Positions 20,501 to 34,766 are shown, counted from the first letter of the stretch. The stretch is 64,000 nt of DNA from Candidatus Moraniibacteriota bacterium (GCA_013334765.1 JAAXWW010000004.1:42557-106556), one strand, 5' to 3'. Translations and numbers: made by a program. Notes: generated from the letters alone by a model not told the origin.

Positions 20501-23329
20501 CTAGAGATATTTCCCTGTCACGCTCCTTTTGCAGCTCTTGAGCCCTTTGGGCGTTCCTGCATAGACAAGTTCGCCGCCTTTTTCTCCTCCCTCGGGACCC
20601 AGATCGATCACCCAATCGGAGTTCTTGACCACGTCCAGGTTGTGTTCGACAACCAGAACCGTATTCCCTTTATCGACAAGCGCGTCCAGGACCAGAAGCA
20701 ACTTCTTCACGTCTTCGAAATGCAGCCCGATTGTCGGCTCGTCAAGGACATACAGCGTCTTTCCGGTTGAACGGCGCGCCAGCTCGGTCGCCAACTTGAT
20801 CCTCTGCGCTTCCCCGCCGCTCATATCAGTCGCGCTCTGGCCGAGCTTAAGATAGCCCAATCCAACCGATTCCAATGTTTCCAATTTCTCAGCAATGAGT
20901 TTCGAATTCTTGAAAAAAGAATGCGCATAAGAAACGCTCATGTCGAGAACATCGGCTATGTTGACTCCGCGATATTCTATTTCCAAAGTCTTCTGGTTGT
21001 ATCTCGATCCTCCGCAGCTCTCGCATTTGACATACATATCCGGCAAGAGATGCATCTCTATCTTCCTGTTTCCGTCGCCCTGGCAATTCTCGCACCGACC
21101 GCCTTTCATGTTGAAACTGAAACGGCTGGCATCATAGCCGCGCCTCTTCGCTTCCTCCATCTCTGAAAAAAGCTCGCGTATGAGGGAGAACACTCCCGTA
21201 TAGGTCGCTGCGTTCGATCTGGGCGTGCGTCCGATCGGAGACTGATTGATGCTTATCACTTTATCGATATTCGAAAGCCCCGTTATTTTCTTGTGACGCC
21301 CAGGATTATCTTTGGAACCGAAGAAATGCTTGGACAAAGCCTTGGAAAGAATATCCCTTACCAGAGTCGATTTTCCGGAACCGGAAACACCAGTCACCGA
21401 AATGAATTTACCAAGCGGAATCTCTACATCGATATTTTTGAGATTATGCTCGCTAGCAGAATGAATCTTGATGGATTTACCATTCCCCTTCCGGCATTTC
21501 GTCTTTTCCGAGACTTTCAATTTCCCGCTCAGATATTTTCCCGTAAGAGTTTTGGCTTTGATCATTTTGGCATAATCTCCCTCGAAAATAACCTCACCGC
21601 CTTCTTCTCCAGCGCCAGGCCCCATGTCAATGACCCAATCGGCACGCCTTATGATCTCCTCATCATGTTCGACCACGATCAAAGAATTTCCTGCTGCGCG
21701 CAATTTTTCCATCGTGTCGATCAGTTTTTCCGTATCGCGATTGTGCAACCCCATCGACGGTTCATCAAGGACATACGTAATTCCGGAAAGCTCCGACCCT
21801 ATCTGGGTTGCCAGACGGATCCTTTGCCCCTCTCCTCCGGAAATCGAATCCGCTGAACGGGAAAGCGACAGATAATCAAGCCCGACGTTTTTGAGCGCCA
21901 TGGCTTTAAGTCTCATTTCTTTCACGAGCGGAAGTACCATCTCTTTTTTCATTTTGCTCCAAGCCGCATTTTCCGCCTCCGTCAAAAACTCCAGGAAACC
22001 TGAAATCGGGAGACTGACAACCTCGTCGATTGATTTTCCTAAAACCAAAACGGAAAGAAATTCGTTTCGAAGCCGTTGGCCTTTGCAGATCGGGCACGGC
22101 TTCTCGATTATGTATTTTTCGATATCGCTTCTTGAATGATTGCCATTGGCATCTTCGTATCTTTTTTTCATTATCGGAATCACGCCGTCAAATGGGATAT
22201 CCGGATCATTCGATCCATAGAGAACAGCGTTCAGATTTTCACGGCTGATTTTATTGACGGGAGTGCCCAGCGAAAATCCGCATTTCTCCCCCAAAGTTCT
22301 CAGAATATTCCCCCCATTCCCGAGCATCGAAAACTTCCCTCCGGACTTGTTCCAGGAAAGGATAGCCCCTTCCGAAAGTGAAAGGTTCTTGTTCGGAATG
22401 ATGAGATCCTCGTCGATTTCCCTGATGACTCCGAGTCCGGAACAATGAGGACAAGCTCCTTCGTGATTATTGAAAGAGAAATGCCGCGGAGAGATTTCCG
22501 GAAGTTTGAAATCGCATTTCGAGCAGATAAAATCACGGTTATACTGTTTCCCCGCCTCTCCGCTTTTAGCCACCATCATCGTTCCTTTCCCGAGTTTGAA
22601 AGCAGTTTCGACCGAATCCAATATCCGCTCCTTATCCGGATTCTTTTCGTTGTGGATTATCCTGTCCACCACAATTTCCACCACATCAAGCGCATCCAAT
22701 TCTTCTTCATTACCCTGATATGCTTCATCGAAAGTCATTATCTTCCCTCCGATCCTGAGCCTCGCGTATCCAAGCTGAGAAACGCTTCTCAAAATCTCTC
22801 TCGCATTTTTTCCTTTCTCGCGAATGATAGCGATGATAACTAGCTGGGTCTTGTCAGGGAAAAAGAAAATCTCTTCCAAAACTTCCCGATTGGAAATCTT
22901 CTTCATGGGAATCTTGCAATTCGGACAGTGCGGCGTTCCGATCTTAGCGAACATGACACGGAGATAATCGTATATTTCCGTAAGAGTTCCGACAGTCGAA
23001 CGAGGCGAACGGCTCAAGCTTTTCTGATCGATGGAAATAGTCGGCGTCAGATTCTCGATCTTGTCCACATCCGGTTTCGATCCAGAATCCAAAAACTGCC
23101 GAGCATAGCTCGACATACCTTCAAGATATCTCCTATTGCCCTCCGCATAAATGGCATCGAAAGCGAGCGATGACTTCCCCGATCCGGAAAGCCCAGTGAT
23201 AACCACCATCTTGTCGCGCGGAATCTCGACGTTCACATTCTTGAGATTATTCACCCGCGCGCCCCTGACTATTATCTTATCCCTTTTCGTCTCGTTCTTC
23301 ATCTTCCCCCTGGTTTGATTCTGCGCCAT
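20501..23329 (-). CDS. uvrA: excinuclease ABC subunit A (UvrA), copy 1; start trimmed to [20 protein letters not shown]
   Basis: Two ABC ATPase modules with Walker [10 protein letters not shown] / GVSGSGKST, signatures LSGGEGQR / LSGGEAQR, zinc-finger Cys motifs. Confidence 0.9.
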
Positions 23330-23495
23330 TTTGGTAAGTGAGTTTAAAAAGCGAAAAACACGTTTACAGGTAGAAATTCTACAGCAGTTTTTGGGAAATG
23401 TCAAAGGTTCGCATGACATAATGAGAAATTGTAAAATGCAACAGAAAGCAAAGAAACATAAATATGCAATAAATACCTATGATTGAAAAGCTTGC

Positions 23496-23626
23496 CGTCC
23501 GAGAAGTTATTTTCAGAATCATTGACTGAGCTCTACACAAAAACCACTTGCTATAAAAAACCGACAAGCAAAACTTACACCCGCAAAAGTCGCAATAATG
23601 ATTCTGAAAATAACTTCTCGGACGGT
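23496..23626. repeat. 131-bp inverted-repeat element: 29-bp perfect terminal IRs flanking the conserved core (ATTGACTGAG ... AACTTACAC-N9-TCGCAATAA)
   Basis: IR ccgtccgagaagttattttcagaatcatt / aatgattctgaaaataacttctcggacgg; core shared with the 39278 and 42483 elements. Confidence 0.7.
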
Positions 23627-23646
23627 AGCAAACGCGCTCCGGTTTA

Positions 23647-32421: not shown

Positions 32422-32752
32422 AATGCCCCCTCGCATATCCCGTTTGAGATATGCTTTGAAATTTTTTGGGAAAGAGCTATTGCTTCACTTAAACACTTGA
32501 TTATACACTATCTCAGAGAAAAAGTCAATAGGATACCCCAGCCACCCTGTCTGAGGGACACTTTTTGGCTTTTCCTGGCTATAAACAACAAAAACACGCG
32601 TAGCGTGTTCCTTACTTGGGATTTTCGATGTTCGATTGTATTTCTGTTTTTTGAGGCATCGCCTTCAATCCACATAAATACTTAACGACTCAGAATAACA
32701 ATCAATTCCTTGCTTACATATTACAGCTTTCCCGAAATAGCGCAATAGGCAG

Positions 32753-32761
32753 TTATCCACA
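32753..32761 (+). promoter_or_regulatory. perfect DnaA box TTATCCACA downstream of the uvrB 3' end
   Basis: Exact 9-mer (context ggcaGTTATCCACAgc). Confidence 0.5.
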
Positions 32762-32789
32762 GCCCTGACAGCTCCTTCAGGCGCCTGGT

Positions 32790-34766
32790 TCATCTTCTCT
32801 GCAGCTTCCTCAATTCCCCGATCTCATCCCGGATAATCGCCGCTTTTTCGAATTCCAGATTCCGCGCGGCGTCTTTCATTTCCTTCTCCCTTTGCTTGAT
32901 ATAGCCTGACATGTCTTCCATATTTTCCAAATCCACAAAATCCCTGGTGACTTGCGGCTTGATCTCATGATCGACGATCGATTCGATTTTCTTCTTGATA
33001 GTTTTCGGAGTTATGCGATGCTTCCTATTATATTCCGTCTGGACCTTCCTTCTCCTTTCGGTCTCCCGGATCGCCCGCTCCATCGAACCGGTTATCTTGT
33101 CCGCATAAAGGATGACGCGGCCGCGGATATTCCTGGCCGCGCGCCCGATCGTCTGGATGAGGGATGTCTCACTTCGGAGGAACCCTTCCTTGTCGGCATC
33201 CAGTATCGCTACCAATGAAACCTCAGGCAAATCCAATCCCTCGCGAAGAAGATTGACTCCGACCAGGACATCGAATTCTCCGCGACGGAGCTTCTCCAAT
33301 ATCATCACCCGGTCCAAGGTCTCGACAGCCGAATGCAGGTATTCCGCCTTGATGCCGTTCTCTTTCAGATAATCCGTCAAATCCTCCGCCATCTTCTTGG
33401 TGAGCGTCGTAATGAGCACGCGTTCCTCTCTGGCAACAACCTTCTCTATCTCCAGGAACACGTCCTTCACCTGCCCCTTGGCGGATTTTATTTCAAGCTC
33501 CGGATCAATGAGGCCGGTCGGACGGATGATCTGCTCGGCGATCCCTCCCGCTTCCTTCAATGATTTCTCCATCTCGTATTTCGCGGGAGTCGCTGAAACG
33601 AAAATAACTTGGTTGATCTTCTGTTCGAACTCAGGGAACTTGAGCGGACGGTTATCGAACGCGCTCGGCAGCCTGAATCCGTTTTCCACCAGCGATTTCT
33701 TCCTGGCATAGTCGCCGTTGAACATGCCGTTTAGCTGCGGCACGGTCACATGCGATTCGTCGATAACCATGAGGAAATCCTTGGGAAAATAATCTATGAG
33801 CGTATACGGCGCTTCGCCGGGATTCCTGCCAGTCAGGAAACGGGAATAGTTCTCGATGCCGTTGCAATATCCGATCTCCCTCATCATTTCGATGTCCTGC
33901 CTCGTGCGCCTCGAGATCCTTTCCGCCTCCAACAGTTTTCCTTCGTTTTTCAAGGCGGCAATCTGTTCTTCCAATTCGTTCTCGATATTCTTGAGAGCCG
34001 CCTCCATGAGAGGCTCCGGAACGACGAAATGCTTGGCGGGATAGATGAGGACCTTGGACAATTTCCCCAACTCTTCGCCAGTCAGGAAATCATATTCATA
34101 TATCTTCGATATCCTTCCGTCCTTCATCTCTATGCGAGTGACGATTTCCCGGCTCGGCGCCATGACTTCCAGCACGTTCCCAGTGACGCGGAATTTCCCG
34201 CGGCTGAGAATCTCGCTCCTTATGAATTGCATATCGATTAATTCGCGAATCATTCCTTCCCGCTCGACTTCCTGCCCGACTGAAACTTCCAAACTGATTT
34301 CCCGATAATACTCCGGTGATCCCAACCCGTATATGCAGGAAACGGAGGCGACGATTATCGTGTCCTCTCTTGAAAGGAGCGCCGAAGTGGAAGCATGGCG
34401 CAAGCGGTCGATCTCGTCGTTGATCTGGGCTTCCTTTTCGATATATGTGTCTGATGACGCAATATATGCTTCGGGCTGGTAATAGTCATAGTATGAAACG
34501 AAATATTCCACGGCGTTCTTCGGGAAGAAAGTCCGGAACTCCTGCGCCAGCTGGGCTGCTAGGGTCTTGTTGGGAGCGATCACCAGAGTCGGCTTCTGCA
34601 CCTTCTCGATCACGTTGGCGATCGTGAAAGTCTTTCCTGAACCGGTCACGCCCAAGAGCGTCTGGAACCTATTGCCCGACTCGAGATTCTTGACCAGGAA
34701 AGATATCGCCTCCGGCTGATCCCCTTCCGGCTTGAACTTGGATGAGATTTTGAACTTGTTTTCCAT
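32790..34766 (-). CDS. uvrB: excinuclease ABC subunit B (UvrB); start set at [18 protein letters not shown]
   Basis: Helicase motifs [12 protein letters not shown], beta-hairpin region, C-terminal UVR domain ([13 protein letters not shown]). Confidence 0.9.

Follow-up and report, generated by a model that had tools for sequence, protein, structure and literature searches.

A probable nucleotide-excision-repair locus with a minimal UvrC and two class I UvrA proteins in a member of Candidatus Moranbacteria

The 64-kb stretch of Candidatus Moraniibacteriota bacterium DNA analyzed here (the window) contains a cluster of nucleotide-excision-repair genes, in which two uvrA genes flank a short uvrC gene, and a gene for a LexA-like repressor and uvrB lie upstream. 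Every gene in the span 20501–34784 (uvrA-1, uvrC, uvrA-2, a DUF3800 gene, the LexA-like gene, p363 and uvrB) is carried on the minus strand (Table 1). An earlier note, made from the sequence alone, had described the uvrA/uvrC/uvrA/lexA/uvrB clustering, and the open reading frames (ORFs) and domains were found as it had placed them; its inventory of uvr genes and lexA stands, but it had overlooked the DUF3800 gene and the 363-aa gene inside the span. The uvrB, LexA-like, uvrA-2, minimal uvrC and uvrA-1 genes are co-oriented, syntenic in many relatives, and all under purifying selection. We consider that the cluster is probably the working nucleotide-excision-repair locus of Candidatus Moranbacteria, a lineage of the Patescibacteria or candidate phyla radiation (CPR), in the arrangement typical of that lineage.

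Table 1. Coordinates of the repair genes, regulatory sites and adjacent genes, counted from the first nucleotide of the window.
Feature	Position	Strand	Description
p310	19512-20444	minus	winged helix + Pol-beta-type nucleotidyltransferase; downstream neighbour of uvrA-1
uvrA-1	20501-23302 (933 aa, NCBI start) or 20501-23332 (943 aa, ATG of the earlier note)	minus	class I UvrA
promoter-like site before uvrA-1	23376-23404	minus	TTGACA-17-TAGAAT; consensus scan 11/12; predicted
mini-uvrC	23647-24885	minus	412 aa; GIY-YIG, Cys-poor motif, UVR helices, disordered linker, RNase H-like nuclease
uvrA-2	25530-28478	minus	982 aa, class I UvrA
DUF3800 gene	28683-29489	minus	Pfam DUF3800; between the LexA-like gene and uvrA-2
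LexA-like repressor gene	29493-30161	minus	222 aa; Peptidase_S24
lexA promoter and overlapping putative operator TTGACAGTGATAATGATAAAGTGATAATATATCATC	30185-30220	minus	promoter scan 11/12
p363	30611-31702	minus	membrane-anchored thioredoxin/GILT-like, 363 aa; weak GILT match
uvrB	32790-34784 (664 aa, TTG) or 32790-34766 (658 aa, ATG)	minus	UvrB equivalog

The gene products resemble the canonical UvrABC systems of Escherichia coli, Bacillus stearothermophilus, Thermotoga maritima and Mycobacterium tuberculosis in having complete UvrA domains, a UvrB equivalog and the GIY-YIG, UVR and RNase H-like catalytic residues of UvrC, but there are two class I UvrAs here instead of one. The UvrB protein has the Pfam domains UvrB, UvrB_inter, Helicase_C and UVR, and its NCBIfam equivalog score of 1014 is well above the cut-off of 743. 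In E. coli, the uvr genes are scattered over the chromosome (uvrC at 1.99 Mb, uvrA at 4.27 Mb), whereas here they are clustered, with the LexA-like gene at the head.

The UvrC protein differs most from its canonical counterparts. Pfam searches identified GIY-YIG (residues 16–92), UVR (207–240) and UvrC_RNaseH_dom (261–399; PF08459, E = 5e-38) domains, but no helix-hairpin-helix (HhH) domain. The protein exceeds the cut-off of the TIGR00194 UvrC equivalog (329.3 compared to 285.45 bits), which it matches in two stretches. [quoted passage not shown] Alignment with E. coli MG1655 UvrC, which was used to map the losses, showed that the C-terminal (HhH)2 of ≈55 aa is not all that is gone. Another ≈130 aa are lacking between the UVR motif and the C-terminal nuclease, corresponding to the RNase H1 platform (E. 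coli ≈245–380; domain HMM negative), and their position is taken by a disordered linker (residues 245–260). Two of the four iron–sulfur (Fe–S) cysteines are lost as well, E. coli C154 and C178 having no counterpart, while C169, Q173 and C177 correspond to E. coli C166, Q170 and C174; nearby, H159 is invariant and Y181 nearly so. This internal deletion and the two lost cysteines had previously been missed. The protein, denoted mini-UvrC, therefore lacks two domains of the canonical UvrC, (HhH)2 and the central RNase H1, and two of its four Fe–S cysteines. The Fe–S cluster of UvrC is bound by a Cys-rich motif defined as C-X6-14-C-X3-H/Q-X3-C-X3-C (PMC10085695), which mini-UvrC does not match, and it may have no Fe–S cluster.

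In contrast to these losses, the residues expected to carry out catalysis are retained. The GIY-YIG residues Y19, Y30, R40 (E. coli R42), E80 and N92 and the RNase H-like residues D269, D312, D337 and H395 (E. coli D399, D438, D466 and H538) are invariant in 49 mini-UvrCs, and the DDH triad D269/D337/H395 is complete. An AlphaFold2 (AF2) model (predicted local distance difference test score, pLDDT, 82.7; predicted template-modeling score, pTM, 0.40) consists of two well-folded halves connected by a low-confidence linker at residues 245–260, with the UVR-region helices at 187–240. Judged by alignment and modeling, both nuclease centers and the UvrB-binding UVR helices are retained in mini-UvrC.

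The earlier note had named a frameshift or a pseudogene as findings that would speak against its description. The only point in favor of a truncated or decaying gene, or of an assembly or sequencing artifact in which the HhH region was lost from the contig, is the length of 412 aa compared to ≈600 aa for canonical UvrC. The reading frame closes with a double stop (TAATAA), and no HhH remnant was found in any frame of the AT-rich 314 nt downstream of uvrC. When the entire window was translated in all six frames and searched with an HMM of the HhH regions from canonical relatives, there was no match (best E = 1.4). The protein is 100% identical to an NCBI entry named Candidatus Moranbacteria, which comes from a metagenome-assembled genome. 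The 120 best homologs, which come from independent assemblies, are all 373–509 aa long, and none of them has an HhH Pfam domain or a match to the custom HhH HMM; all 120 lack the RNase H1 domain as well. More distant relatives were surveyed by searching the representatives of 50%-identity clusters exhaustively, and the best 150 of them were classified with custom domain HMMs. Most of these are 400–480 aa long; 121 lack both HhH and the central domain, 13 lack only the central domain, and 14 are canonical. In a neighbor-joining (NJ) tree of UvrC, the canonical forms are basal, intermediates that keep HhH are interleaved near the base, and the crown consists entirely of mini-UvrCs, a pattern that, weak as the tree itself is, suggests a stepwise reduction. 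The ratio of nonsynonymous to synonymous substitutions (dN/dS) between related pairs was 0.06–0.14 for uvrC and 0.02–0.14 over all cluster genes, although these values are rough, dS being saturated (>1). Because the short form is conserved in >240 relatives, with dN/dS well below 1 and invariant catalytic residues, the gene is neither frameshifted nor a pseudogene, and we give practically no credence to truncation. On this comparative evidence, mini-UvrC is a natural form typical of the lineage rather than a broken gene.

We also considered whether a neighboring gene supplies the missing HhH. This was rejected: the p310 model is a winged helix with a nucleotidyltransferase, p363 is thioredoxin-like, and no UvrC-type HhH occurs in any frame of the window.

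A functional precedent comes from D. radiodurans (Deinococcus radiodurans), in which an engineered UvrC-Δ(HhH)2 retained UvrB binding and the 3′ cut, and the 5′ cut was weakened but not abolished (PMC10085695). Since this protein keeps its 3′ cut and a weaker 5′ cut, a working UvrC without HhH is plausible by analogy, and the altered 5′ incision that had been expected of mini-UvrC agrees with it. [quoted passage not shown]

Alternatively, mini-UvrC could be an auxiliary nuclease like Cho (E. coli ydjQ), with a canonical UvrC encoded elsewhere in the genome doing the main job. Cho is likewise a short GIY-YIG relative of UvrC and is such a helper in E. coli; many proteins of the mini-UvrC type are named merely “GIY-YIG nuclease family protein” at NCBI; and the search for another uvrC covered 64 kb of the genome, the window itself. 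However, Cho lacks the second, C-terminal nuclease domain, whereas mini-UvrC has an RNase H-like domain with a full DDH triad. Furthermore, mini-UvrC scores only 41.6 bits with the Cho model NF007833 (cut-off 367) while passing TIGR00194, and its gene always has a uvrA gene next to it, on one side or on both. The small genomes of CPR bacteria seldom retain redundant enzymes, which also counts against a separate canonical UvrC. Taken together, we regard an auxiliary role as very unlikely, and favor mini-UvrC as the nuclease of the repair system.

To place the cluster in context, contigs with homologous mini-UvrCs and 18 loci from GTDB species genomes were mapped with the proteins of the window (related loci are labeled in the style L001–L023). 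About 15 related species-level genomes share the order uvrB-(p363)-(lexA)-uvrA2-uvrC-uvrA1-p310-groEL. The uvrA-2 gene lies directly upstream of uvrC in all loci with enough upstream sequence, except L023, and uvrA-1 and p310 follow uvrC in about 12 loci. Both uvrA-1 and p310 are missing from L002, L012 and L018, despite 10 kb of visible downstream sequence. Orthologs of p363 hold the same position between uvrB and lexA in 10 loci; no sign of a role for p363 in repair was seen. By this synteny, the cluster is the standard arrangement of a large CPR lineage and not a peculiarity of one genome.

The spacing between genes varies among the loci. In L004, the layout is compact, with spacers of 96, 5, 80, 140 and 110 bp, whereas the window has a looser layout, with a 644-bp gap between uvrA-2 and uvrC and a 314-bp gap with a strong promoter-like site before uvrA-1. 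The larger gap contains two small ORFs on the plus strand, at 24954–25205 (83 aa) and 25226–25447 (73 aa), neither of which has a family match; the latter has GGAGG as its ribosome-binding site and, after its end, a GC-rich hairpin and T-run. None of the related loci mapped contains an ortholog of the DUF3800 gene, which lies in the lowest-GC bin of the window (0.414), and for these reasons we take it to be an insertion specific to the window.

The two UvrA proteins are 48% identical to each other. The description of both as full-length is upheld by Pfam, equivalog scores and the ATPase and zinc motifs, all of which place them in class I, with the NCBI start giving a UvrA-1 of 933 aa. Pfam lists UvrA_inter and UvrA_DNA-bind in both, and ABC_tran for UvrA-1 as well. 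On the UvrA equivalog NF001503, UvrA-1 scores 1262 and UvrA-2 1446 bits, compared to a cut-off of 1147. The Walker A and B, signature, H-loop and zinc-ligand positions (three zinc modules) are kept in both clades, except that in the UvrA-2 clade a zinc-module Cys at about residues 290–296 is replaced by His (FSCPVH, compared to FACPIC in E. coli). A UvrB-binding domain (PF17760; E = 6e-18 and 7e-23 in the two proteins, with UvrB binding itself predicted) and an insertion domain (PF17755) are present in both. The UvrB-binding domain spans 168 residues in UvrA-1 and 194 in UvrA-2, compared to 164–171 in reference UvrAs, and the insertion domain 124 and 145, respectively, compared to 134–137. The domain spans of UvrA-1 are thus near canonical, with an insertion domain ≈10 residues shorter, and those of UvrA-2 are expanded. 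Low-complexity, Lys/Ser-rich insertions are found within the UvrB-binding domain of the UvrA-2 clade.

Class II UvrAs, such as D. radiodurans UvrA2 (PDB 2vf7) and Ecm16 (PDB 7sh1), likewise represent a second UvrA-family ATPase per genome, but they lack the UvrB-binding domain that both proteins in the window have. The window UvrAs also match class I structures far better than class II (1010–1164 compared to 459–678 bits). The suggested link of tandem uvrA paralogs to drug resistance thus does not apply, such paralogs being of class II. Two UvrA units also occur together in tandem-fused UvrA, a chlamydial form whose NCBIfam model (NF001885/PRK00635) has 1809 positions; there they form a single polypeptide, whereas here they are separate genes with uvrC between them.

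The two copies differ in how closely they follow the canonical protein. UvrA-2 is 55–59% identical to reference UvrAs (59% to that of B. stearothermophilus) and UvrA-1 48–52% (52%). The mean within-clade distance is 0.34 for UvrA-2 and 0.55 for UvrA-1, which has evolved ≈1.6 times faster; dN/dS is 0.04–0.05 for UvrA-1 and 0.02–0.07 for UvrA-2. In NJ trees whose outgroups were E. coli, B. stearothermophilus, PDB 9gxk and M. tuberculosis, the two UvrAs form two clades, each with 100/100 bootstrap support and the same species order; the outgroups group together in 84/100 replicates, and all three groups are monophyletic. Because the two fully supported clades repeat the same species order, the duplication is older than the sampled Moranbacteria. 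The rooting would fit an origin of the duplication within the CPR lineage, without proving it. On this evidence, UvrA-2 is the constant copy, closer to canonical UvrA, and UvrA-1 is a maintained but dispensable second class I sensor, as predicted from its domains.

The faster evolution of UvrA-1 and its loss in some relatives could also indicate that it is not a repair protein, but a drug-resistance or defense UvrA-like ATPase (class II/III UvrA, DrrC or Ecm16 type), possibly acting with p310. The p310 protein (310 aa) has no family match. In relatives, its gene is always the next one downstream of uvrA-1, and where uvrA-1 is absent, p310 is absent too. Its 771 homologs, where named, all belong to Moranbacteria/Parcubacteria. 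An AF2 model (pLDDT 88.6) consists of a winged helix and a Pol-beta-type nucleotidyltransferase, and the closest solved folds include antibiotic nucleotidyltransferases. In addition, the RGRKGE-like motif has not been preserved in the UvrB-binding domain of UvrA-1. However, the p310 fold matches are weak and generic to nucleotidyltransferases, and UvrA-1 has full-length UvrB-binding and insertion domains with reference-like spans, passes the UvrA equivalog cut-off, and keeps all ATPase and zinc motifs. PADLOC gave only a mad3 match for UvrA-1, which is generic (E. coli UvrA scores higher), and had no match for p310, the DUF3800 protein or mini-UvrC; a reading of the locus as a defense system was rejected on these grounds. 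A non-repair role for UvrA-1 is consequently unlikely in our estimation.

A somewhat better, though still doubtful, candidate is that UvrA-1 and UvrA-2 form an obligate heterodimer or split the labor between partners (e.g., UvrB and Mfd). Each is a complete class I protein, and the pair has been kept together from a time before the sampled lineages diverged; between the two, identity is lowest across the UvrB-binding domain (22%) and insertion domain (31%). Each UvrB touches one UvrA protomer at its UvrB-binding domain and the second protomer at signature domain II (PMC11985968), and asymmetric dimers are conceivable given such two-protomer contacts. However, L002, L012 and L018 keep UvrA-2 and mini-UvrC without UvrA-1, indicating that UvrA-2 can work alone, and we prefer to view UvrA-1 as a dispensable second sensor.

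The “lexA cassette” described previously does contain a LexA-like gene, but it is not an inserted element: the gene appears to be autoregulated and heads the uvrA2-uvrC-uvrA1 run in relatives, and only the DUF3800 gene is an insert. The protein contains a Peptidase_S24 domain (PF00717, E = 1e-17), but missed the cut-offs of LexA_DNA_bind (PF01726; 22.2 compared to 23.7 bits) and of the TIGR00498 LexA equivalog (87.3 compared to 110.95 bits), and is therefore referred to as LexA-like. A GDSM serine and an IK(R/K/S)(F/Y)KK motif with an invariant lysine are kept in seven LexA-like orthologs. All seven share a predicted self-cleavage motif, LASCGEA, in which cleavage would occur at Cys-Gly instead of Ala-Gly; Cys-Gly is also the cleavage site of UmuD.

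Three AGTGnTA-type half-sites, one of them inverted and the other two direct, overlap the lexA promoter (TTGACA-16/18, 30220–30191); they are also conserved at this promoter in six relatives (L001, L004, L008, L009, L010 and L012). In the seven genomes, the −35 and −10 boxes are overlapped by the repeat motif, which is absent from the rest of the loci; exact matches to the inner 17-mer are likewise confined to lexA promoters. The only site in the window within two mismatches of the operator is that at 30185–30201, and a 35-nt composite operator pattern had no match in the window. A direct-repeat LexA motif is reported for Patescibacteria, the same superphylum, in the work of Sanchez-Osuna et al. 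(2017) as relayed by PMC7739468 (also cited in PMC8565304); the two direct AGTGnTA repeats seen here are joined by an inverted one. The LexA-like protein is predicted to be autoregulated through this putative operator. Since no promoter-like or terminator-like site was found between lexA and uvrA2 in L004 or L010, the ancestral unit looks like an autoregulated lexA-uvrA2-uvrC-uvrA1 operon.

Several small features lie on either side of p363. Just upstream of the lexA promoter, at 30295–30480 (minus strand), is a zinc-ribbon-like ORF of 61 aa, rich in Cys and His, which has a ribosome-binding site and a terminator of its own. Between uvrB and p363, a 1.1-kb spacer (31703–32789, minus strand) contains two promoter-like sites, small ORFs of 49 and 93 aa, and two near-identical terminator hairpins (GGGAGCC...GGCTCCC). 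The sequence TTATCCACAG, a perfect DnaA-box-like 10-mer, occurs twice in the 64 kb (0.07 expected), at 32151–32160 and 32753–32762 on the plus strand, both within this spacer. The same 10-mer is found ≈10 bp upstream of the lexA −35 box in L004 (6098), L008 (5861), L009 (5863), L010 (3893) and L012 (5015).

The remaining genes of the window are housekeeping genes, and a second uvrC, mfd and uvrD are not among them; they include pilus genes, a two-component system, GroEL, translation factors and transfer-messenger RNA (tmRNA). The type IV pilus set (PilM, a PilB-like ATPase, PilC and a pseudopilin) is at 8147–16295 (minus strand), five tRNAs are located at 329–859 and 7006–7080 (plus strand), the tmRNA, with the tag ANLYTKARTAMAQAFSANFATALA, at 50955–51348 (plus strand), and a 3′–5′ exonuclease resembling the PolB exonuclease at 53495–54163 (minus strand).

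Taken as a repair locus, the cluster suggests the following sequence of events. A lesion would be found by a UvrA-2 dimer together with UvrB, which would recruit mini-UvrC through the UVR coiled coil. The 3′ cut would fall to the GIY-YIG domain, the 5′ cut to the RNase H-like domain, tethered by a flexible linker of ≈20 residues that would replace the positioning by RNase H1 and (HhH)2, probably with lower efficiency. UvrA-1 would serve as a second, dispensable class I damage sensor. The LexA-like protein would repress its own promoter through the AGTGnTA-type repeats overlapping the −35 and −10 boxes, and, in the compact ancestral layout, transcription from this promoter would read on through uvrA2-uvrC-uvrA1, making the cluster damage-inducible. 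In the window, the operon appears to have been loosened by the insertion of the DUF3800 gene and the two small opposite-strand ORFs, and uvrA-1 may be expressed from its own strong promoter-like site.

Some observations weigh against this picture. The absence of the RNase H1 platform might alter the mechanism beyond what is assumed above, and only the 64-kb window was searched for another, canonical uvrC or for an HhH partner encoded on its own. The roughness of the dN/dS values, already mentioned, limits how much can be drawn from them. As for regulation, the operator in the window is degenerate in its third half-site, no operator within two mismatches lies directly upstream of uvrA-2, uvrC, uvrA-1 or uvrB in the window, and the DUF3800 gene stands between lexA and uvrA-2; the case that LexA controls the uvr genes here is drawn solely from relatives of this genome.

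A broader and quite speculative possibility, to which we assign a low probability, is that Moranbacteria and many other Paceibacterota have re-engineered excision repair, combining a tethered two-nuclease UvrC, without (HhH)2 or RNase H1 and probably without Fe–S, with a sensor role split between two class I UvrAs, either as a heterodimer or as separate partner- or lesion-specific sensors, with p310 as the partner of UvrA-1.

Of the parts of bacterial excision repair, UvrC is the one understood least, and the roles of its (HhH)2 domain, RNase H1 platform and Fe–S cluster are still debated (PMC10085695). No description of UvrC or excision repair in CPR bacteria, of a minimal UvrC, or of this cluster was found in literature searches. 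A large natural family minus all three of these features, with both active sites under purifying selection, would supply structural and biochemical studies with a minimal UvrC that already exists in nature, and its sequences argue that each of the three may be non-essential for repair in vivo. The paired, complete class I UvrAs around uvrC offer a test case for the duplication and specialization of a damage sensor. Finally, with mini-UvrCs frequently labeled just as “GIY-YIG nuclease family protein”, excision repair may be under-called in CPR genomes.

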